A stretch of DNA of 64,000 nucleotides, taken from Eledone cirrhosa. Its lineage: Eukaryota. Below the pieces are notes generated by a model, which ran no database searches, had not been told where the DNA came from, and saw only the letters and a list, made by a program, of their open reading frames with translations. Location of the stretch: contig CAXHJY010000976.1 of the NCBI GenBank assembly GCA_964016885.1, positions 29,921 to 93,920 on the forward strand. The letters are read 5' to 3'. Position 1 is the stretch's first letter, and each line of letters begins with the position of its first letter. This document shows positions 23,524 through 64,000 of this stretch, piece after piece. The translations under genes and the position numbers were made by a program.

Positions 23524-23578
23524 GCGGCGATGAATTAGTTTTGCGAGGTTTTTTATATGAAATCGTGTGTCGAAACAG

Positions 23579-24015
23579 ATATTGTTATATTTGGGGAGGG
23601 TCATATTTGCGTAATATTGCCAGAATTAATAACAGAACACACTCACTGTTTGGTTGGTTTTCGCTTCTCGCTGTCTTTTATATATATATATCTGCGATCT
23701 AACTTACTCAAAAAAAAAAATGGCGTAGACATACAACACAACAGGAGGAACAATGAATATAACACCACTGACGATGTTGCAGATGTGCAACGAAAGATTT
23801 ATGTAAACTATATATATATGTGTTTGTCTATATTGTATCTGTATTATTTTTGACCGCCGGTCAGTCAATGGCAACATTGAGGACCGAGTAAGTTAGATCG
23901 CAGATATATATATATAAAAGACAGCGAGAAGCGAAAACCAACCAAACAGTGAGTGTGTTCTGTTATTAATTCTGGCAATATTACGCAAATATGACCCTCC
24001 CCAAATATAACAATA
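23579..24015 (+). mobile_element. Family C hammerhead element with inverted copy of its 3' end
   Basis: 23579-23709 is the reverse complement of 23886-24015; the interior has CTGACGA T GTTGCA gatg TGCAAC GAAA (23768-23795); terminus ATGACCCTCCCCAAATATAACAATA is shared with ~59157-59180. Confidence 0.7.
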
Positions 24016-28774: not shown

Positions 28775-29179
28775 GTAAAGTTATATTTAAAATTGTTGGG
28801 TTACAACTAGTAAATATTTATAACTGATATAAAAGCACTCGACAAATATTTGGAGTATATTTACAATATTAAATAAATGGAAAACTATATTTATAAAACC
28901 ATATTTATTTCATTATATATATTTCGGGGATATCATATTAACAATATGCTATGCCTTCATCAGACAAAATACAATATAAACAGTTTTATAGATAAATATA
29001 TTCGACATGCCGTAATAAACATCAACTTCATTTGAAGAGGTTTACGCTAGCAGTCCTATAAAACTATAAAACTATTTATCTATAAAACTGTTTATATTGT
29101 ATTTTGTCTGATGAAGGCATAGCATATTGTTAATATGATATCCCCGAAATAAATATAGTTTTCCATTTATTTAATATTG

Positions 29180-29180
<1 letters not shown>
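28775..29180. mobile_element. Inverted-repeat pLTR-like element with hammerhead core
   Basis: 28919-28998 pairs with 29073-29152; CTGATGA AG ...stem II... C GAAA at 29108-29149; outer arms ~28862-28893 / ~29148-29180. Confidence 0.65.
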
Positions 29181-29252
<72 letters not shown>

Positions 29253-29284
29253 GTATGTATATATATGTATATATATATATATAT

Positions 29285-32200
29285 GTGCATGCTACTGTAC
29301 GTCTGTATACATATATGTATGTACGTATACATGCATACTTACATTTAAGTAAGTGCCATACTAAGAGTGAGAAATGAAATTTCGTTTTCATTTTGTTTCA
29401 ATTTATCGTTTTCGGTATGCCTTACCGATTTAACTCACTCAATATGCAAATTAGGCTGCTCAGCCGTTAATTTTCATAAGGAAAGTATATACTTTCGAAC
29501 GTTCAAATATCTGGCAGATGGGTAAACGGTGCTGATGATAGCTAACAAGCTTGAAACTAGTACATCGTTCCTGTGTCAGTGTTGAACAAAAAGGTGACGT
29601 GGTTGCCTTAACACCGTATGGCATAAATTCAGGCTGTTCAGTTTGTTTACAAACGAACAAAGCGACGTTATAATAAGCGCCGCTAAACTGATACGTGCAT
29701 ATATGTATGTGTACCTGTATGCATATGTATATATATATATATATGTGCATGCTACTGTACGTCTGTATACATATATGTATGTACGTATACATGCATACTT
29801 ACATTTAAGTAAGTGCCATACTAAGAGTGAGAAATGAAATTTCGTTTTCATTTTGTTTCAATTTATCGTTTTCGGTATGCCTGACCGATTTAACTCACTC
29901 AATATGCAAATTAGGCTGCTCAGCCGTTAATTTTCATAAGGAAAGTATATACTTTCGAACGTTCAACTATCTGGCAGATGGGTAAACGGTGCTGATGATA
30001 GCTAACAAGCTTGAAACTAGTACATCGTTCCTGTGTCAGTGTTGAACAAAAAGGTGACGTGGTTGCCTTAACACCGTATGGCATAAATTCAGGCTGTTCA
30101 GTTTGTTTACAAGCGAACAAAGCGACGTTATAATAAGCGCCGCTAAACTGATACGTGCATATATGTATGTGTACCTGTATGCATATGTATGTATATATAT
30201 GTATATATATATATATATGTGCATGCTACTGTACGTCTGTATACATATATGTATGTACGTATACATGCATACTTACATTTAAGTAAGTGCCATACTAAGA
30301 GTGAGAAATGAAATTTCGTTTTCATTTTGTTTCAATTTATCGTTTTCGGTTTGCCTTACCGATTTAACTCACTCAATATGCAAATTAGGCTGCTCAGCCG
30401 TTAATTTTCATAAGGAGAGTATATACTTTCGAACGTTCAACTATCTGGCAGATGGGTAAACGGTGCTGATGATAGCTAACAAGCTTGAAACTAGTACATC
30501 GTTCCTGTGTCAGTGTTGAACAAAAAGGTGACGTGGTTGCCTTAACACCGTATGGCATAAATTCAGGCTGTTCAGTTTGTTTACAAACGAACAAAGCGAC
30601 GTTATAATAAGCGCCGCTAAACTGATACGTGCATATATGTATGTGTACCTGTATGCATATGTATATATATATGTATATATATATATATATGTGCATGCTA
30701 CTGTACGTCTGTATACATATATGTATGTACGTATACATGCATACTTACATTTAAGTAAGTGCCATACTAAGAGTGAGAAATGAAATTTCGTTTTCATTTT
30801 GTTTCAATTTATCGTTTTCGGTATGCCTGACCGATTTAACTCACTCAATATGCAAATTAGGCTGCTCAGCCGTTAATTTTCATAAGGAAAGTATATACTT
30901 TCGAACGTTCAACTATCTGGCAGATGGGTAAACGGTGCTGATGATAGCTAACAAGCTTGAAACTAGTACATCGTTCCTGTGTCAGTGTTGAACAAAAAGG
31001 TGACGTGGTTGCCTTAACACCGTATGGCATAAATTCAGGCTGTTCAGTTTGTTTACAAGCGAACAAAGCGACGTTATAATAAGCGCCGCTAAACTGATAC
31101 GTGCATATATGTATGTGTACCTGTATGCATATGTATGTATATATATGTATATATATATATATATGTGCATGCTACTGTACGTCTGTATACATATATGTAT
31201 GTACGTATACATGCATACTTACATTTAAGTAAGTGCCATACTAAGAGTGAGAAATGAAATTTCGTTTTCATTTTGTTTCAATTTATCGTTTTCGGTTTGC
31301 CTTACCGATTTAACTCACTCAATATGCAAATTAGGCTGCTCAGCCGTTAATTTTCATAAGGAGAGTATATACTTTCGAACGTTCAACTATCTGGCAGATG
31401 GGTAAACGGTGCTGATGATAGCTAACAAGCTTGAAACTAGTACATCGTTCCTGTGTCAGTGTTGAACAAAAAGGTGACGTGGTTGCCTTAACACCGTATG
31501 GCATAAATTCAGGCTGTTCAGTTTGTTTACAAACGAACAAAGCGACGTTATAATAAGCGCCGCTAAACTGATACGTGCATATATGTATGTGTACCTGTAT
31601 GCATATGTATATATATATGTATATATATATATATATGTGCATGCTACTGTACGTCTGTATACATATATGTATGTACGTATACATGCATACTTACATTTAA
31701 GTAAGTGCCATACTAAGAGTGAGAAATGAAATTTCGTTTTCATTTTGTTTCAATTTATCGTTTTCGGTATGCCTGACCGATTTAACTCACTCAATATGCA
31801 AATTAGGCTGCTCAGCCGTTAATTTTCATAAGGAAAGTATATACTTTCGAACGTTCAACTATCTGGCAGATGGGTAAACGGTGCTGATGATAGCTAACAA
31901 GCTTGAAACTAGTACATCGTTCCTGTGTCAGTGTTGAACAAAAAGGTGACGTGGTTGCCTTAACACCGTATGGCATAAATTCAGGCTGTTCAGTTTGTTT
32001 ACAAGCGAACAAAGCGACGTTATAATAAGCGCCGCTAAACTGATACGTGCATATATGTATGTGTACCTGTATGCATATGTATGTATATATATATATATAT
32101 ATGTGCATGCTACTGTACGTCTGTATACATATATGTATGTACGTATACATGCATACTTACATTTAAGTAAGTGCCATACTAAGAGTGAGAAATGAAATTT

Positions 32201-32693
32201 CGTTTTCATTTTGTTTCAATTTATCGTTTTCGGTATGCCTTACCGATTTAACTCACTCAATATGCAAATTAGGCTGCTCAGCCGTTAATTTTCATAAGGA
32301 AAGTATATACTTTCGAACGTTCAACTATCTGGCAGATGGGTAAACGGTGCTGATGATAGCTAACAAGCTTGAAACTAGTACATCGTTCCTGTGTCAGTGT
32401 TGAACAAAAAGGTGACGTGGTTGCCTTAACACCGTATGGCATAAATTCAGGCTGTTCAGTTTGTTTACAAACGAACAAAGCGACGTTATAATAAGCGCCG
32501 CTAAACTGATACGTGCATATATGTATGTGTACCTGTATGCATATGTATATATATATGTATATATATATATATATGTGCATGCTACTGTACGTCTGTATAC
32601 ATATATGTATGTACGTATACATGCATACTTACATTTAAGTAAGTGCCATACTAAGAGTGAGAAATGAAATTTCGTTTTCATTTTGTTTCAATT

Positions 32694-32694
<1 letters not shown>
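29285..32694 (+). repeat. Tandem array of seven ~460-474-bp non-coding units, each with one hammerhead ribozyme (retrozyme-like family A)
   Basis: CTGATGA cores at 29532, 29992, 30466, 30938, 31412, 31884 and 32350; units near-identical; flanked by (TA)n. Confidence 0.92.
29525..29569 (+). ncRNA. Type I minimal hammerhead ribozyme (family A, repeated in each unit)
   Basis: AACGGTG CTGATGA T AGCT AACA AGCT T GAAA C TA G TA CATCGTT: stem I AACGGTG/CATCGTT, stem II AGCT/AGCT, palindromic stem III ACTAGT, cleavage triplet GUA. Confidence 0.8.
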
Positions 32695-32737
<43 letters not shown>

Positions 32738-32926: not shown

Positions 32927-35102
32927 AAAATACGTATTTAAGAAAGCCACAACAATGCAGAGGGAAATCTCGAGGTAGGAAGTGAAAGATAGATAGGAAA
33001 AACAGGTGAAAGTGAAAATTGAGAGAGACAAAGATGAAAACAAAACAAAGGTAGAAGGGTTACCGTAGTAGAGATTTAATCCCAATATTTCGGGCTCACG
33101 CCCATCAACGGGGGAAAGTTCCAAAAGGGGGGGAACAGGCCAAGCGGAGAAAGTTGTGATGTCGTTAAGACAGGAATGCCGTTATGGGGAGAAAATTATT
33201 TAAAATTTAAACGAGGGAAAGAATGCGCGTGCGCGTGATAGGCTGTGGCAAAAGCTACTGACCAAATGGGTTAAATCAAGAGGGTGCGCTAGCGTGTGAA
33301 AGCCGTAAGATATGTGTGTGTAAATATATATGTGTGTGTAACTGTGTGTGTATAGGTGTGTGTATATGTGTGAGTGCGTTTGTGTGTGAAAGATAGTGGG
33401 CTGTAGAAGCTGGAAATCAAAGGGTGTGAAAGGTGGTAGGTTGTAAAAACATGTGTGCGTGTATAAATAGATGTGTGTGTATGCGTATGGGTATGCATAT
33501 ACGTGCGTGTGTGTGAAGATAGCAGGCCGTAGGCTGTGAATGGTCACTATGGTTAAGTTAGCCATGTCAGCTCATTTCTCTCAGCCCGGTTGTTAAGTGG
33601 GGGTCTGAGGTTCTTAATAACAAGTGCTTCCTTTATCCTTAAGGATCCGATGCTGCGTTCAGTCGCTAGGACTGTGACTAAGGGTCTACCCTGTGGGTTT
33701 CCGCATTTAAGGATGTGTTTACGGAAGGAAGTTGCGTTGGTGTTGATATATTCCTTGATACGAACATGTAGGGGTCGGATGGTGCTACCTATGTAAAACT
33801 TGTTACATTTATCGCATTGAATCTTATATACGACATAGGTGCGTAGGCAATCTGCCCCCCGTATCGGGCAGTTGCTGAGGGAACACGTCCCATCTGACTC
33901 GTCGGGTTTGTTGGAGAGGCATCTTCGCAGCGAAGGTCCTGTGTGGGCCAAATGTATGTCAAGTCCCTCCGTCCGTATGGCCCTGCGGATGGCGTTCGTG
34001 GTATATTCACTCAGGTGGGGGATTTTAAAGAAGCACCTGCTATTATTTAATTTTCTAGTGGGTGTCTGTCTATTGGGTCTGGGGTCTCTAATTCCGTTAA
34101 TCAGTCGCTTGGGATAACCATTAGATCTGAGTAGATTACGGAATTGCGTGGTATGAGTGAGACCACCCATCGGGTCGCTGCATCTGTTAGTGATCCGTGT
34201 CAGTTCATTTAGGACATAGCCTCTCCTAGCGTTGTTGGGGAGGGCTGAGTTATAATGCACAAATAAGTCCTTGCACGCTGCTTTGCGGTAGAAGGTGGTG
34301 TTTATGTCTCCTTCTTCCGAGATGTTGATACGGAAGTCGAGGAGGGCGAGTGACCCGTCTTCTCCTGGGTGTTCGATGGTGAAATCGACGTGATGGTCAG
34401 TATCGTTGAAGATTTGGTGAATTTCATTCGCCATCTCCCGGGAAGAAGTATCAGGATATCATCAACGTATCTGGAGTAGAAGGCGACGGTGTTGGGTTGG
34501 CAGGTATTGAGTGCCTTGCGTTCCAGGTGGTCCATGTACGAGATCGCAAGTATGCCGGACAGACTAGAGCCCATAGGTAGCCCAGAGATTTGTTTGTACG
34601 TGTGGCCGAGGAAATTGAAGAGTGCATTATCCACAACGAAGGAGAGGAGTTGGTGGATGTCCGTGTGTGTGAGTCCGAAGCAGTGTAAGTTAGATGCTCG
34701 GACTCGTTCGGTCAACAGGTCGACAGCTGGGGATGCTGGTACGGAGGTATAAAGGGCGACCACATCAAGACTGAAGGCATAACCGTTGTCCTTTCTGGTG
34801 TTGGGCGCCAGATGGTGTAGTCGCTCCAAGACTTCCTTTGAGCTGCAGACGTGGGCTGGTAGTGTGTGTAGAATAGGTTTCAGTAGTGTGGAGAGCAGCC
34901 ACGATATTTTGTAGAGTGGGCCCTCCACGCTAGAGACAATGGGCCTGATTTTCAAATCGGGTCCTTGTTTATGTGTTTTGACCAGGTTGTAGAAGGTGGG
35001 TAATTTGCTGTTTCGAGTCATTATGTTGTTTTTTACCTTCTTTGGCAGTTTTCGTTGGACACAGATGTTAGTCCATATGGTGTTAATGCCTTCCTCGATT
35101 AG
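32927..35102 (-). mobile_element. 5'-truncated Penelope-like element (RT + C-terminal GIY-YIG), one frameshift
   Basis: RT motifs LVKTHK, IRPIVS, SLDVVALYTSV, GLPMGSSLSGILA, RYVDDIL (34302-35102); frameshift ~34435 into thumb + Cys-rich linker + VVYKIQCDKCNKFYIGST...E...LN (33553-34434); flanked by (TA)n. Confidence 0.93.
33553..35102 (-). pseudogene. Penelope-like RT/GIY-YIG ORF, truncated and frameshifted
   Basis: ORFs 34302..35021 and 33553..34434 overlap in different frames. Confidence 0.88.
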
Positions 35103-38320: not shown

Positions 38321-41300
38321 CCAACAGTCTTATAAACAGGAAACTTCTTCCTCTTTTTTAGCCATAATGAATCTGGCAAAAGAACTGGAAAAAAACATTC
38401 GAGCTATCACCCAGCACCACCCTCCACTATCACCCCACTGCACAAACTCCCATTGCTGCCATTAACAAACAAACAAATTAACAACACACCAAAACAATTA
38501 AAACCATCCACTCTCGCCTCTACATTTTTGCTTAACGCCCAAGGCATCAGCCCTTCCACCAATACTCAAAAATGGAAGATCAAATTCCTGGAGGACTGGA
38601 TTGATGTCCATCCAAACCACATCCCTTTCTTCATCCTCACTGAAACCCATCTCAGTAACCTCCACTTGGAAGCCGAGGTGAAAGTGAAAAATTTCAAAGC
38701 CATCCGTGCTGATCGCGCTGGCAGAAGAAAGGGCGGGACTGCCATTTATGTCCATAATTCTTTCTCAACAGAGGCTATGAACATATTCACTAAAGGATAC
38801 TGTGAAGCAGTCACTGTATTCAGTCAAACTAACAACCTAATAGTAGTTGGGCTCTATAGGCCACCCCAAACGCCTGTACCATGCTTCAAGGAATGCCTCA
38901 ACAGCATAAAGTGTTTCATCCAAGAGTGTCACCCTGACAACATCTTAATGATGGGGGACTTCAACCTCCCCGGAGTTGACTGGTCCACAAACAGCCTGCC
39001 ACCAGGTTCTTCTGCCTCAACCTCTGACAGGGAAGCAGTGGAATCGCTTCTTGACTTCATGGATGATTTCTTCCTATCCCAACTGGTGCTCGAACCAACG
39101 AGGTGCCACAAAAACGTCCTAGACTTAATTTTCAGCAATCACACTGACAATATCCACAATATTGCAGTGGAGAAAACTCTACTCTCTGATCATGACATGG
39201 TTCTCTGTGATCTGAGATTCCACCGTCCAATATACAAACCCAATGTCATCTCTCCTGTCCATCCGTTTGACGCTATGGATTTCCACAATGCAAACTGGGA
39301 AGCGATCAGTCATGATCTTGCACATGTCGACTGGTCCTTCACGCACACTCATACACCCACTAACATCAAAAAGTCCTGGCAGACATTTGTGGACACTGTT
39401 ACAAACATATGTGAAAAACACACCCCATTAAGGACTATAAACAAATCTAAGAGCAGAATCCCTAGAAATAGAAAAACGCTCATCAGAAAAATTAAGAGAA
39501 CGAACAAAAAAATCAACAAGCTGAAATACTGTCAGCAGCAACACATCAACTTGACTGCCATTTCATCATTAGAGATTAAAAAACATAACCTCCAAAACAA
39601 CATAATGTCCCTCATCAACAATCAGAGAAGAGCTGAAGAGGCCTGGGCCATTGAGAAGATCAAACTCAATCCCAAAGTGTTCTTTTCATTTGCAAAAAAA
39701 CACAAAATCACTGGCTCTACTGTTGGCCCTCTAATTGATGAAAATGGCACTCTTCAAGACAATGCTAAAACCATGGGTGAGATACTGCAGAAACAATACT
39801 GCTCTGTTTTCAGCAATCCTGATATGGCCGATCTGGGCTGTATCGGCGATGTTACTCCACATTACACCTTATCGGACATAACGTTTGGCGCCCCTGATGT
39901 CTTAGCGGCAATAAAGGAAATCAAGCATAATTCAGCAGTAGGTCCCGATAGGTTCCCTGCTTGTGTCTTGAAGGCGTGTCAACACCAACTTGCATCTCCT
40001 CTTGCCAATCTGTGGCGGAACTCACTGGATGCTGGATATGTGCCAGAAAACCTTCTATCCCAGTCTGTTGTCCCAGTTTTCAAAAAGGGAAACAAATCCC
40101 TTGCCGTGAATTACCGTCCAATCTCACTCACCTCTCATATCATTAAGGTATTTGAGAGAGTGGTGAGATCGCGAATGACCCACTTCCTTGAGAGTAACAA
40201 TATGCTGAACTCCAACCAGCATGGATTCCGTAATGGAAGGGATTGCCTGACGCAGCTACTGCATCACTTTGATGACATTTTGAGAGCCTTGGGAGAGGGT
40301 TCCAACACTGATGTTATCTACCTTGATATCAGCAAGGCCTTTGACAGGGTTGATCATAACATTCTACTGAGAAAGCTGTCCAATATTGGTGTCACTGGAA
40401 AGCTGCTGCAGTGGATCAAGAGCTTCCTGTCAAACAGAACCCAACATGTTGTAGTTGAAGGAGTCAAATCCAGCCCAGCCAAAGTCAGTAGTGGGGTCCC
40501 ACAAGGCACTGTGTTGGGCCCACTTCTCTTCATCATCTATATTAATGACATCACTGACATCATCAAACACAGCAACATTAAAATTTTCGCTGATGATTCC
40601 AAGCTCCAAAAGGTCATCAATGGCGTGGATGACCGGATAAGCCTTCAGTCAGACCTACTGGCTGTTACCCAATGGGCGGAAAAGAACAACATGTTACTGA
40701 ACGAAGACAAATTCGACCTGATCCACTTTGGAAAAGAGGATGCTCTGAAACTCCCGTACTCCCTTCCCTCCGGGGAAACTCTCGTGGCATCTAACAACAT
40801 CAGAGACTTGGGAGTAACCGTGGACAGCAACATAAGCTGGACCACGCATATAAGCAGCAAAGTTGACATGGCCCGCAGAATGTGTTCCTGGATCCTCAGA
40901 ACCTTCCAGTCGAGAGATTCCCACACCATTATCCTTCTCTTCTCTACTTGTGCCCGACCACACCTTGAATACTGTTGTCCACTGTGGTCTCCCCACACGA
41001 AACAAAGTATCATGAAACTTGAAGCTCCTCAAAGGGCAATCACGAAAAAGATAGATGGCATGTCAGACCTTGACTACTGGGGTCGACTAGAAAAGCTGAA
41101 ACTTTACTCATTCCAACGTCGCCGTGAGCGTTATATTATCTGCATGATGTGAAAAATGTTCCATCATCACTGCCCAAATGATGTTGGCATCGCGTTCAAG
41201 ATACACCCAAGGCTTGGGCCCCGTGCTATCCGTCCCATTCAAAAATCTAAATCGCAACTCATAACAACAATACGGCACAATTATTTCACCTCAATCGGCC

Positions 41301-41560
41301 CTGCTCTCTTCAACATCACACCAGGACACGTCAAAACAGAAACTGACCACACAAAATTCAAGAAGTCTTTGGACAAATTCCTCCAAGTAATCCCGGACAA
41401 ACCACCCACACCCGGATATGTCTCCGCAAACATTAATTCTCTTCTCGAATGGGCCATGGTGCCCAAATCCTGAATTGAAAGACTTCGCCAGGTGGTGCTA
41501 TTAAGTTAGACATGGCCTGGGCCAATACTGGCCAAAACATTTCAAAGTTATTCAAAGTTA
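38321..41560 (+). mobile_element. CR1-group LINE copy 1, 5'-truncated in ORF1
   Basis: APE endonuclease (LNAQG, LTETH, GDFN, LDL, SDHD) and RT (YRPISLT, KAFD, GVPQG, FADD); TGG>TGA stop at 41150-41152; 3' tail TTCAAAGTTA x2 then (TA)n. Confidence 0.95.
38453..41473 (+). pseudogene. CR1 ORF2 (EN+RT) with one premature stop
   Basis: 899-aa ORF + in-frame 105-aa continuation; the stop is Trp in copy 2. Confidence 0.9.
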
Positions 41561-44746: not shown

Positions 44747-45267
<521 letters not shown>

Positions 45268-45321: not shown

Positions 45322-45326
<5 letters not shown>

Positions 45327-46326
45327 AAATAACGAAACGAAATCAAATTTCGTTTCGTTTGTAACTCACTTTTGTATGACTGACGCTTAAACAATTAAGT
45401 TAAAAATGTACATCCACATATGTATACTGAAATACTAGTATGCATATGAATACACACACGTATACATATGTAGATGTACCGAGTTTTTCACTGGTCACTT
45501 TACTGTGAGTGTCCAGCTATTCTGTATGTAAACACACAGACAAACCGGTTTTTAGAGTCATACTGGTTTTTGAGGAAACACCTTTCCTCTATTCTCCAGA
45601 AAGCCAGGCAAGGAAGATAGGTAAATATTGCTGATGAGATGTAACAACATCGAAACTAGTTCAATATTCAAGGTGTTTCCTCAAAAACCAGTATGACTCT
45701 AAAAACCGGTTTGTCTGTGTGTTTACATACAGAATAGCTGGACACTCACAGTAAAGTGACCAGTGAAAAACTCGGTACATCTACATATGTATACGTGTGT
45801 GTATTCATATGCATACTAGTATTTCAGTATACATATGTGGATGTACATTTTTAACTTAATTGTTTAAGCGTCAGTCATACAAAAGTGAGTTACAAACGAA
45901 ACGAAATTTAATTTTGTTTCGTTATTTGTTTTTATCGTCTCCGTTGAACCGGTACGTACTCACGCTCTATGCAAATTAGTCTGCCCACTACTAATTTTCA
46001 TAGTAAAAGCATATAACGATATGTGCTTTTACGATTCTCTAGAGAGGCCGGAAGATAGGTAAATATTGCTGATGACATGTAACAACATCGAAACTAGTTC
46101 AATATTCCTTGCCTGGCTTTCTGGAGAATAGAGGAAAGGTGTTTCCTCAAAAACAGTATGACTCTAAAAACCGGTTTGTCTGTGTGTTTACATACAGAAT
46201 AGCTGGACACTCACAGTAAAGTGACCAGTGAAAAACTCGGTACATCTACATATGTATACGTGTGTGTATTCATATGCATACTAGTATTTCAGTATACATA
46301 TGTGGATGTACATTTTTAACTTAATT
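45322..46326 (+). mobile_element. Retrozyme-like family B: inverted partial unit + ~1.6 tandem units with two hammerheads
   Basis: 45322-45613 is an inverted copy of the unit body; hammerheads AATATTG CTGATGA GATGT AACA ACATC GAAA C TA G TT CAATATT at 45624-45668 and 46062-46106. Confidence 0.85.
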
Positions 46327-46882: not shown

Positions 46883-47851
<969 letters not shown>

Positions 47852-48716: not shown

Positions 48717-49874
48717 ATGGCTAACCAGCAAAAATCCAAACAGAACTGGTCTGATAATGAAATCGACATTCTAATAAACACATGGCATTGCCTTTCCCAA
48801 ACAGAAAATATAGATGCTTCATCTCTGAACGACATTGCTAAACGTACAGTTCAATTTTTGAAAACTCGATCTGAACAACAGATTCAAAATAAATTAAAGC
48901 AAATCGAAATTGCTTTTAAATTAATCAATAAACATTTGGATAAACTACGGTGTGTTTTCTCTTCGAATGCTGTCCAGCAGCAGCAACAACAACAACAGCA
49001 GCTACAACAGCAACAACAACAACAGCTACAACAACAACATCAACAACAGCTACAACATCAACAACAGCAACAACAACAGTGTGAACCACTCCTTGATTCA
49101 TCAACAATGGCCGATCTACTAAATGAAACTATTGACCCCCCAGTAGCCTCTGTCTCACAGCATGAAACGCCACATCCTTTCTCTGGCCCAGCAGTCCAAT
49201 CATCACCACTGCCAACATCTCTGCCTACTACTACTACTACTACTACTACAACATTTTTGTCTACTGCTATGTCAAGGAATTTACCTTCTAATACCAGAAC
49301 AAGAACTCTCCCTCCCACAGTCCACAAAGGTCGTCAAATCCTACCCAAACCATCATCTACACCTCTCACAACACCCACACCCATATACCCACCCACTCGA
49401 AACCCCATCATTTGCCGCTACTCTCTACGCTATAGAATATGTACGGATAGTGGCTGCAAATTCACCCATTTACCTAGGACAAAACGATCTATCCCCACAA
49501 ACAGCCACCACCATAATACATACTCTAATTTAACACCAACACAACCACCAATAACTCAAACAAGGAATCCACAAATCTGCCGTTTTTCCCTGCCAGACAG
49601 ATTGTGTTTAGACCGGGATTGTCCCTTTACCCATCTCCCGGGGACCCGTCGGATAAATGAAAATAAAATTAAAAATAAAAGCAAAAACAAAAACCATAAC
49701 CTACATAAAAATAACCACTACCACAGTCACCAACAGTCTTCTAAACAGGAAACTTCTTCCTCTTTTTTAGCCATAATGAATCTGGCAAAAGAACTGGAAA
49801 AAAACATTCGAGCTATCACCCAGCACCACCCTCCACTATCACCCCACTGCACAAACTCCCATTGCTGCCATTAA
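48717..49874 (+). CDS. LINE ORF1, 385 aa: Myb/SANT-like N-terminus, polyQ, Thr/Pro linker, two CCCH fingers
   Basis: ATG 48717; [14 protein letters not shown]...[13 protein letters not shown]; [19 protein letters not shown] and [19 protein letters not shown]. Confidence 0.78.
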
Positions 49875-52836
49875 CAAACAAACAAATTAACAACACACCA
49901 AAACAATTAAAACCATCCACTCTCGCCTCTACATTTTTGCTTAACGCCCAAGGCATCAGCCCTTCCACCAATACTCAAAAATGGAAGATCAAATTCCTGG
50001 AGGACTGGATTGATGTCCATCCAAACCACATCCCTTTCTTCGTCCTCACTGAAACCCATCTCAGTAACCCCCACTTGGAAGCCGAGGTGAAAGTGAAAAA
50101 TTTCAAAGCCATCCGTGCTGATCGCGCTGGCAGAAGAAAGGGCGGAACTGCCATTTATGTCCATAATTCTTTCTCAACAGAGGCTATGAACATATTCACT
50201 AATGGATACTGTGAGGCAGTCACTGTATTCAGTCAAACCAACAACCTATTAGTAGTTGGGCTCTATAGGCCACCCCAAACGCCTGTACCATGCTTCAAGG
50301 AATGCCTCAACAGCATAAAGTGTTTCATCCAAGAGTGTCACCCTGACAACATCTTAATGATGGGGGACTTCAACCTCCCCGGAGTTGACTGGTCCACAAA
50401 CACCCTGCCACCAGGTTCTTCTGCCTCAATTTCTTCCTATCCCAACTAGTGCTCGAACCAACGAGGTGCCACAAAAACGTCCTAGACTTAATTTTCAGCA
50501 ATCACACTGACAATATCCACAATATTGCAGTGGAGAAAACTCTACTCTCTGATCATGACATGGTTCTCTGTGATCTGAGATTCCACCGTCCAATATACAA
50601 ACCCAATGTCATTTCTCCTGTCCATCCGTTTGACGCTATGGATTTCCACAATGCAAACTGGGAAGCGATCAGTCATGATCTTGCACATGTCGACTGGTCC
50701 TTCACGCACACTCATACACCCACTAACATCAAAAAGTCCTGGCAGACATTTGTGGACACTGTTACAAACATATGTGCTAAACACACCCCATTAAGAACTA
50801 TAAACAAATCTAAGAGCAGAATCCCTAGAAATAGAAAAACGCTCATCAGAAAAATTAAGAGAACGAACAAAAAAATCAACAATCTGAAATACTGTCAGCA
50901 GCAACACATCAACTTGACTGCCATTTCATCACTAGAGATTAAAAAACATAACCTCCAAAACAACATAATGTCTCTCATCAACAATCAGAGAAGAGCTGAA
51001 GAGGCCTGGGCCATTGAGAAGATCAAACTCAATCCCAAAGTGTTCTTTTCATTTGCAAAAAAACACAAAATCACTGGCTCTACTGTTGGCCCTCTAATTG
51101 ATGAAAATGGCACTCTTCAAGACAATGCTAAAACCATGGGTGAGATACTGCAGAAACAATACTGCTCTGTTTTCAGCAATCCTGATATGGCCGATCTGGG
51201 CTGTATCGGCGATGTTACTCCCCATTACACCTTATCGGACATAACGTTTGGCGCCCCTGATGTCTTGGCGGCAATAAAGGAAATCAAGCATAATTCAGCA
51301 GTAGGTCCCGATAGGTTCCCTGCTTGTGTCTTGAAGGCGTGTCAACACCAACTTGCTTCTCCTCTTGCCAATCTGTGGCGGAACTCACTGGATGCTGGAT
51401 ATGTGCCAGAAAACCTTCTATCCCAGTCTGTTGTCCCAGTTTTCAAAAAGGGAAACAAATCCCTTGCCGTGAATTACCGTCCAATCTCACTCACCTCTCA
51501 TATCATTAAGGTATTTGAGCGAGTGGTGAGATCGCGAATGACCCACTTCCTTGAGAGTAACAATATGCTGAACTCCAACCAGCATGGATTCCGTAATGGA
51601 AGGGATTGCCTGACGCAACTACTGCATCACTTTGATGACATTTTGAGAGCCTTGGGAGAGGGTTCCAACACTGATGTTATCTACCTTGATTTCAGCAAGG
51701 CCTTTGACAGGGTTGATCATAACATTCTACTGAGAAAGCTGTCCAATATTGGTGTCACTGGAAAGCTGCTGCAGTGGATCAAGAGCTTCCTGTCAAACAG
51801 AACCCAACATGTTGTAGTTGAGGGAGTCAAATCAAGCCCAGCCAAAGTCAGTAGTGGAGTCCCACAAGGCACTGTGTTGGGCCCACTTCTCTTCATCATC
51901 TATATTAATGACATCACTGACATCATCAAACACAGCAACATTAAAATTTTCGCTGATGATTCCAAGCTCCAAAAGGTCATCAATGGCGTGGATGACCGGA
52001 TAAGCCTTCAGTCAGACCTACTGGCTGTTACCCAATGGGCAGAAAAGAACAACATGTTACTGAACGAAGACAAATTCGAACTGATCCACTTTGGAAAAGA
52101 GGATGCTCTGAAACTCCCGTACTCCCTTCCCTCCGGGGAAACTCTCGTGGCATCTAACAACATCAGAGACTTGGGAGTAACCGTGGACAGCAACATAAGC
52201 TGGACCACGCATATAAGCAGCAAAGTTGACATGGCCCGCAGAATGTGTTCCTGGATCCTCAGAACCTTCCAGTCGAGAGATTCCCGCACCATTATCCTTC
52301 TCTTCTCTACTTTCGCCCGACCACACCTTGAATACTGTTGTCCACTGTGGTCTCCCCACACGAAACAAAGTATCATGAAACTTGAAGCTCCTCAAAGGGC
52401 AATCACGAAAAAGATAGATGGCATGTCAGACCTTGACTACTGGGGTCGATTGGAAAACCTGAAACTTTACTCACTCCAACGTCGCCGTGAGCGTTATATT
52501 ATCTGCATGATGTGGAAAATGTTCCATCATCACTGCCCAAATGATGTTGGCATCGCGTTCAAGATACACCCAAGGCTTGGGCCCCGTGCTATCCGTCCCA
52601 TTCAAAAATCTAAATCGCAACTCATAACAACAATACGGCACAATTATTTCACCTCAATCGGCCCTGCTCTCTTCAACATCACACCAGGACACGTCAAAAC
52701 AGAAACTGACCACACAAAATTCAAGAAGTCTTTGGACAAATTCCTCCAAGTAATCCCGGACAAACCACCCACACCCGGATATGTCTCCGCAAACAGTAAT
52801 TCTCTTCTCGAATGGGCCATGGTGCCCAAATCCTGA
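49862..52836 (+). pseudogene. CR1 ORF2 (EN+RT) broken by a 46-bp deletion
   Basis: ORFs 49862..50449 and 50449..52836; copy 1 sequence 39021-39066 is absent here. Confidence 0.9.
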
Positions 52837-52911
52837 ATTGAAAGACTTCGCCAGGTGGTGCTATTAAGTTAGACATGGCCTGGGCCAATACTGGCCAAAA
52901 CATTTCAAAGT

Positions 52912-55884: not shown

Positions 55885-56345
<461 letters not shown>

Positions 56346-58926: not shown

Positions 58927-59861
<935 letters not shown>

Positions 59862-59888: not shown

Positions 59889-64000
<4,112 letters not shown>

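Follow-up and report, generated by a model that had tools for sequence, protein, structure and literature searches.

Animal retrozymes and Penelope-like elements

Non-LTR retrozymes have already been described in animals (PMC7229834, Cervera and de la Pena 2020). They are non-coding tandem units that bear one canonical type I hammerhead ribozyme each, have a GC content under 45% and a highly self-paired predicted fold, and coexist with Penelope-like elements; family B, the element studied here, resembles them in these features. Canonical metazoan type I hammerheads with a palindromic loop III need dimers (PMC4209133, PMC7229834), and one of nine Xenopus retrozyme dimers was cleaved in vitro (10.64898/2026.07.22.740005, Li, Clavereau and Pollet 2026 preprint). 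The same preprint links retrozymes to the pseudo-LTRs (pLTRs) of Penelope elements. The axolotl hammerhead HHR_Amex1 has one pair and a palindromic tetraloop in helix III, as in B; HHR_Amex2 shares its U.U at the helix II base with A, the sister family of B; and the mussel has two related hammerhead families, as does the host of A and B (PMC7229834). Helix III of B is of the weak amphibian type, though the host is a mollusc. The B unit of 466 nt is longer than the RNAs of 170-400 nt and the range of 150-450 bp given in PMC7229834 and lies within the 51-972 bp of the preprint (10.64898/2026.07.22.740005). Newt satellite 2, like A and B, is a hammerhead tandem repeat needing dimers (cited in PMC2220036, PMC7229834); an internal snRNA-type promoter has been reported for it (PMC2220036), and A and B share ATGCAAAT, a candidate promoter, the two being likened by description only. 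In the literature searched, in which subscription papers were thinly covered, no such octopus family was found, and the accessible text of PMC7229834 does not contain the word octopus.

Insertions of Penelope-like elements show partial tandems together with a 5' copy in inverted orientation, have a tail of 30-40 bp and favour (TA)n (PMC8557442). The Penelope protein of the anole cuts and extends both strands and begins at two internal sites, which define the tail; in that assay, hammerhead cutting was dispensable for insertion (PMC11167929). The pLTRs of endonuclease-bearing Penelope-like elements resemble B in the partial tandem and inverted 5' copy, the tail, the (TA)n targets and a type I hammerhead with a palindromic loop III (PMC4209133, PMC8557442, PMC11167929). 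Unlike them, B has no ORF, carries a canonical rather than a minimal hammerhead, and consists of a unit that closes on itself. B itself visibly has an inverted arm of Penelope type, a pair of end sites and a (TA)n target, features that we did not find described for retrozymes in the accessible text of the sources.

Layout of the family B element

The window, that is, the whole stretch of 64,000 nucleotides of Eledone cirrhosa DNA that was analysed, holds in its second half long (TA)n tracts carrying many insertions. The following features are needed for the description of B and A.

45322-46326: family B element, an inverted arm and then 1.6 head-to-tail copies, with (TA)n on both sides
45322-45615, minus strand: inverted arm of B, starting 5-9 nt past the predicted cut (unit position 46105-46108)
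45612-45615: microhomology GGAA of 4 nt at the inversion joint, equal to unit 46050-46053 on the plus strand and 46105-46108 on the minus strand
45612-46049, plus strand: B copy 1 of 438 nt, with 28 nt missing after 45669
46050-46326, plus strand: B copy 2, partial, which gives way to (TA)n at the proximal end site, the counterpart of 45861
29244-32696, plus strand: sister family A, an array of 7.3 units in tandem, each of about 472 nt; it has 7 hammerheads, with a GUA triplet and U.U at the base of helix II

The inverted arm runs out into (TA)n at the distal end site, which corresponds to 45931-45935 of the unit. Inverted partial and tandem copies in (TA)n are found at the coordinates at which a first-pass annotation, made from the sequence alone, had placed them. 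Its unit length of about 465, counted as 438 plus about 27, also stands at 465/466 nt, with a correction to the arithmetic: the segment absent from copy 1 is 28 nt long, the equivalent of 46108-46135 in the 3' strand of the extended helix I, and copy 2 is without one base near 46153, which leaves a net difference of 27. Neither copy in the window is intact, since copy 1 carries this deletion and copy 2 has C46076 in helix II. The 28-nt deletion, which lies next to the palindrome centre, and C46076 are decay of the B insertion, with a timing that we infer.

The B unit has a GC content of 36%, and its longest ATG-started frame is 32 codons. In A the longest such frame has 76 low-complexity codons on the minus strand, and there is no ORF common to A and B. 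No LTR pair flanks an internal region in the layout of B.

The hammerhead ribozyme

45624-45668, plus strand: type I hammerhead 1, with a helix I of 7 bp, an intact G-C pair at the base of helix II and a palindromic CUAG loop III
46036-46127, plus strand: extended helix I around hammerhead 2, with the core at 46062-46106 and a predicted cut after 46099

The hammerhead cores of B begin at 45631 and 46069, 438 apart. The core pattern matches nine times in the window (seven in A and two in B), against 0.00 expected from 100 shuffles; a canonical type I hammerhead is present in 7/7 units of A and 2/2 of B, one of the latter with a private mismatch in helix II. A pattern scan of the window found no hammerhead on the opposite strand of the A or B units; it occurs on one strand only. 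Helix I is paired at 7/7 positions in both families, as AATATTG/CAATATT in B and, with one G.U, as AACGGTG/CATCGTT in A, in agreement with the stem I of the first-pass annotation. Beyond it, both have a UA bulge and two further pairs, after which B alone has a long extension. The GUU triplet expected at about 45661 lies at 45659-45661, with the predicted cut after 45661.

Other parts of the earlier description need revision. Helix II of B, given as GATGT/ACATC, is formed in copy 1; in copy 2, C46076 stands opposite C46089, where A has U.U. This C breaks the pair at the base of helix II and is private to copy 2, as all contigs compared have G at that place. Loop II is kept in A and B as stated, but it and the UA bulge are partly generic, since they occupy the same places in the HH9 type I consensus. 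The GAAACTAGT segment taken for stem III amounts to a single A-U pair with the palindrome CUAG as its cap, or to two pairs around a 2-nt loop, and is therefore unlike the usual helix of a monomer. With a helix III of one pair and a palindromic loop, cleavage is likely to need dimers, and the duplex between two hammerhead copies is predicted at about -6.6 kcal/mol.

Rfam Hammerhead_HH9 (RF02275) has the same kind of core, a helix I with a UA bulge and a 4-bp helix II with a 6-nt loop. Hammerhead 1 scores 24.9 bits against it (E 0.0013), below the gathering score of 52; full-length matches are obtained with B copy 2 (E 0.00012) and with A (E 0.014), whose 25 and 18.5 bits are likewise far below gathering, and helix III is reduced by comparison with HH9. 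At gathering score, the Rfam scan of the whole window gave 0 matches. Rfam matches to miRNA and snoRNA families were rejected, as they are far below gathering scores and reflect hairpins. Two metagenome matches to a relaxed core were also set aside as chance: they are one sequence, with helices I and II unpaired, and likely a bacterial gene end, which we take to be that of acetate kinase. The hammerhead of family B is thus a predicted self-cutting, dimer-dependent type I ribozyme.

Fold, covariation and sequence variants

In a circular fold, 66-68% of the unit is predicted to be paired, with a z of about -9 (40 shuffles), and in both families the fold of the plus strand is the more stable one, by 32-45 kcal/mol over that of the minus strand. 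Covariation was examined by applying the structure from one family to the other, with an automatic alignment of only two lineages and a permutation null. Over the whole unit there are 16 double-sided compensations against a null of about 8 (reached by 21 and 13 of 5000 permutations). The hammerhead region holds 4 and 5 of them in 16 pairs, with null means of 0.7 and 0.4 (5 and 0 of 4000 permutations). For the body, defined as the unit minus the hammerhead and a TA-rich hairpin, double-sided compensation is near the null, at 10 against 6.3 (335/4000) and 6 against 5.5 (1903/4000), so the whole-unit value was rejected as a signal from the body, being non-significant once those two parts are removed. 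Total pairing of the body does exceed the null, at 61 against 50.6 (21/4000) and 58 against 45.3 (3/4000), and one-sided changes show little bias between G.U-type and A.C-type (11 against 10; 13 against 7). An RNAalifold result of 16/66 covarying pairs was set aside, as it came from two sequences in an alignment partly out of register. The proposal that covariation supports function is therefore upheld for the hammerhead (4-5 pairs against 0.4-0.7) and not for double-sided changes in the body. These comparisons support structural constraint on the hammerhead.

Variants of B were also compared in sequencing runs. Part of the B unit is contained in 20 of the 24 runs listed (17 studies), with no RNA run listed among its holders. 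Four runs were compared in detail, and the others, like those with a small share of the unit, were given no weight as to host range; the unit at 45854-46318 was set against 1,046 contigs of run X1, 1 of X5 and 10 of X14. In run X21, about 1 in 100 of the raw reads was sampled with 0 matching, which is too thin to count as a test. At a share of at least 5% there are 13 variant places. Eight are in predicted pairs, and 8/8 keep a canonical pair; the other five are unpaired in the predicted fold, including 46076, where the pair at the base of helix II is regained with G. Six of the paired-site variants are swaps between Watson-Crick and G.U pairs, an outcome with a chance of about 1 in 64 on the assumption that every second transition of this kind would break the pair. 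In helix II, 46077/46088 shows a double swap from A-U to U-A, the two changes standing together on one contig each in X5 and X14; in X1 the swap variants have near-equal depth. X5 and X14 are shallow, with a depth of 2-33, and all their variants are also present in X1, so that these runs are possibly non-independent or cross-contaminated, and X1 may be the source sample.

Homology of families A and B

The body of B had been called unalignable to that of A. This is contradicted by a global alignment in which 268/428 columns are identical (62.6%) and the hairpins are colinear, in identical order. The hammerhead-free stretch upstream aligns with a score of 108.5 against a shuffle mean of 41.5, and the downstream one with 113 against 57.9, a score that includes the TA-rich hairpin; both exceed all 300 shuffles. 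That the bodies can be aligned strengthens the earlier claim that A and B are sister lineages, which is now supported along their whole length by sequence comparison.

Two predicted structures of the body are common to both families.

45885-45963, plus strand: predicted three-way junction, closed by GTGAG/CTCAC, with the single-stranded linker TTTATCGT common with A
45968-46002, plus strand: hairpin with ATGCAAAT (45969-45976); its C.U mismatch recurs at the corresponding position of A (29903-29938)

ATGCAAAT has the form of an octamer element and may belong to an internal promoter. A multiloop stem with a T-A/C-G swap and the TGTTTACA hairpin tip are also common to A and B. Within A (29244-32696), the variants alternate (copies 2=4=6 and 3=5; spacings 460, 474, 472, 474, 472 and 466), which makes it a dimer higher-order repeat.

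Insertion ends and Penelope marks

The sense strand of B ends at the equivalent of 45861, and the inverted arm ends at about 45931-45935, which leaves a gap of about 70 nt. In X1, 11 contigs go over from 45935 into (TA)n, and this is also where the inverted arm and, in homologous terms, the 3' end of A stop. The 3' end of A lies at 32696, at a homologous TTTAT|CG site. The distal insertion end site TTTAT|CG is common to A and B, and the linker TTTATCGT contains it (about 45935). The layout was earlier read as the signature of Penelope-type integration, and it fits the description available in PMC8557442, with a tail of about 70 nt that is longer than the published 30-40 nt. We infer twin priming behind the B insertion; a fold-back of a single cDNA is an alternative for the inverted arm. 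A second cDNA that stopped near the cut site would fit a ribozyme-cut template, as a single event. The self-complementary helix I would favour a joint near the cut site anyway.

Two Penelope-like elements, both incomplete, lie in the same window: one with RT and GIY-YIG at 32931-35102, and a GIY-YIG fragment at 62433-62813.

32931-35102, minus strand: coding Penelope-like element, 5'-truncated and frameshifted, with RT plus, at the C terminus, GIY-YIG with a Cys linker; a helper-type element of the same (TA)n field

A protein search with a Penelope-type ORF of the window gave 5 matches among 554 candidates, of which the single one with a species name was from Octopus bimaculoides at 51% identity. 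Apart from low-complexity matches, a comparison of A and B with both coding fragments of the window revealed no sequence link. The 3' end of the element at 32931-35102 (32931-33553, minus strand) has a degenerate hammerhead-like motif, a short hairpin followed by GAAA, about 130 nt from the element end and unrelated to A or B. At 61457-64000, inverted arms of 981 bp that are 99.8% identical surround the GIY-YIG C-terminal fragment (62433-62813), whose CxxC and CxH motifs fit the Hydra clade as described in the accessible part of PMC8557442. A relaxed hammerhead scan of the element at 61457-64000 found none.

Other insertions in the window

Several further insertions were seen. Short (TA)n units with inverted arms and hammerhead-like cores lie at 23525-24011 (core at 23768) and at 58930-59177 / 59658-59860 (58975, 59860), and a related core is at 2138. 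The two units have the 3' end ATGACCCTCCC..TATAAC in common and differ in their bodies, which points to a possible common helper signal. A further family at 55986-56339 and 60288-60509 has a hammerhead-like core on both fold-back arms (56167 minus, 56253 plus; 60467 minus), and its copy at 60288-60509 adjoins an AT-rich tract, possibly the end of another element. An AT-rich inverted unit at 28775-29180, directly before A, has two hammerhead-like cores, one on the minus strand at 28963 and one on the plus strand at 29108.

LINE copies with AP endonuclease and RT lie within (TA)n at 38322-41553, 48718-52906 and 46921-47740; two of them are 97% identical, and one has a glutamine-rich, zinc-finger-like first ORF. 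An insert of 190 bp at 44795-44985, 340 bp before B, contains a fold-back of 110 bp; no hammerhead was found in it, and it has no similarity to A or B. One X14 contig leaves the unit behind 46036 into sequence beginning with ACTCGAAAGTCAT, 13 letters that recur at about 61464, where they lie in the inverted arm of the Hydra-like element; as this is a single contig, the match may be chance.

Origin of the family B element

On balance, we consider it probable that B is an animal non-LTR retrozyme with a predicted dimer-dependent hammerhead, copied in trans into (TA)n by a Penelope-like reverse transcriptase-endonuclease. An alternative is that B is the solo pLTR of a coding Penelope-like element, whose 5'-truncated insertions leave terminal repeats, inverted and tandem. 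The layout matches Penelope insertions (PMC8557442), most Penelope hammerheads are found as truncated pieces (PMC4209133), and 24/57 Xenopus retrozyme families match known elements, nearly all of them Penelope pLTRs (10.64898/2026.07.22.740005). Such an origin is nevertheless unlikely for B, as in the window and the contigs alike its unit leads from hammerhead through body to hammerhead again without an ORF, and seven such units stand in a row in A. The head-to-tail joint recurs with a period of 465 in X1, X5 and X14 (3/4 of the runs compared), and the share of X1 contigs passing into unlike sequence is 0. An RT-GIY-YIG ORF beside B was found neither in the window nor among 8 of 37 loose contig ends, where short contigs and a tangled graph could hide a rare copy. 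The hammerhead, with a 7-bp helix I, a 4-5-bp helix II and no extra base at 9/10.1, is canonical, and lacks the long helix II, short helix I and extra base at 9/10.1 of the minimal form of metazoan pLTRs (PMC4209133). However, canonical hammerheads have been reported in Hydra-clade Penelope elements (PMC8557442), so the canonical form would also fit that clade. The two coding fragments, which match A and B only by low-complexity sequence, speak against B being merely a terminal pLTR, an outcome that the first-pass annotation named as refuting its view; this holds for those two fragments and for the window. From the sequence evidence, a closed, independent non-coding unit is favoured. Vertebrate retrozymes have been argued to derive from pLTRs (10.64898/2026.07.22.740005); if retrozymes did so, as this preprint holds, the independent-unit and pLTR readings would differ mainly in time.

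A and B might instead be hammerhead-bearing satellite DNA that spreads mainly by DNA-level recombination in (TA)n, with the hammerhead as an inherited relic. The alternation of copies in A shows that a dimer was duplicated at the DNA level or copied from a dimer template, both B copies are damaged, and the body covariation is weak. Yet in both families, and again in 11 contigs, insertions end at one fixed internal position, an inverted arm with a microhomology joint is unexpected from unequal exchange, and the variants keep plus-strand pairing, with the double swap segregating within B; we regard simple satellite spread as improbable. Our doubts are greater still about viroid-like circles that replicate from RNA to RNA and integrate only occasionally, for which there is the highly self-paired circular fold, as predicted, and the possibility of RNA-RNA replication raised for mussel retrozymes (PMC7229834). 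The hammerhead is on one strand only, and the fold is branched and strand-asymmetric. Viral contigs gave 0 matches to either of two patterns, the hammerhead and the octamer-hairpin; prokaryote genomes likewise gave 0 matches to the octamer-hairpin pattern. The first-pass annotation had spoken of an RNA replicon; in the sense of RNA-to-RNA replication, the analysis holds no evidence for the term.

Proposed mechanism and meaning for animal retrozymes

For a retrozyme moved in trans, the following course of events may be proposed. The tandem copies would be transcribed from the plus strand, and two hammerheads are predicted to pair through the self-complementary ACUAGU and to cut after GUU (B) or GUA (A), giving monomers. 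These may be circularised by a host ligase, as in coral, mussel and axolotl retrozymes. A Penelope-like protein would then nick both (TA)n strands, and reverse transcription would begin within the RNA from two positions separated by about 70 nt, of which the distal one is the TTTAT|CG common to A and B. As the layout suggests, one cDNA would extend over 1.6 units, crossing two hammerhead junctions that were uncut or had been re-ligated. The other, of about 290 nt, would halt 5-9 nt short of the cut site, and the two would be joined within helix I, where the microhomology of 4 nt lies. That the unit is transcribed, circularised and copied by a Penelope-like protein is put forward as the probable background of the B insertion.

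A bolder version can be offered only tentatively, and we think it rather doubtful as a whole. It holds that A and B are long-separated retrozyme lineages without a cognate coding parent and that, over about 37% divergence, they have retained a full set of cis elements for parasitising Penelope, namely a structured docking domain whose three-way junction carries the fixed reverse-transcription start TTTAT|CG, an octamer promoter inside the unit and a hammerhead gated by dimer formation. The B insertion would then be the twin-primed product of an uncut (circular or multimeric) and a ribozyme-cut template.

The class itself is already known, and the finding likely extends animal non-LTR retrozymes to a cephalopod host, with no new system involved. 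The mover of animal retrozymes and the role of their hammerhead have so far been deduced from co-occurrence and sequence trees. The end site common to A and B names a short RNA domain for trial with purified Penelope protein. If the bolder version is true, the genome itself would bear witness, in the B insertion, that the template copied by Penelope is shaped in vivo by hammerhead cleavage.
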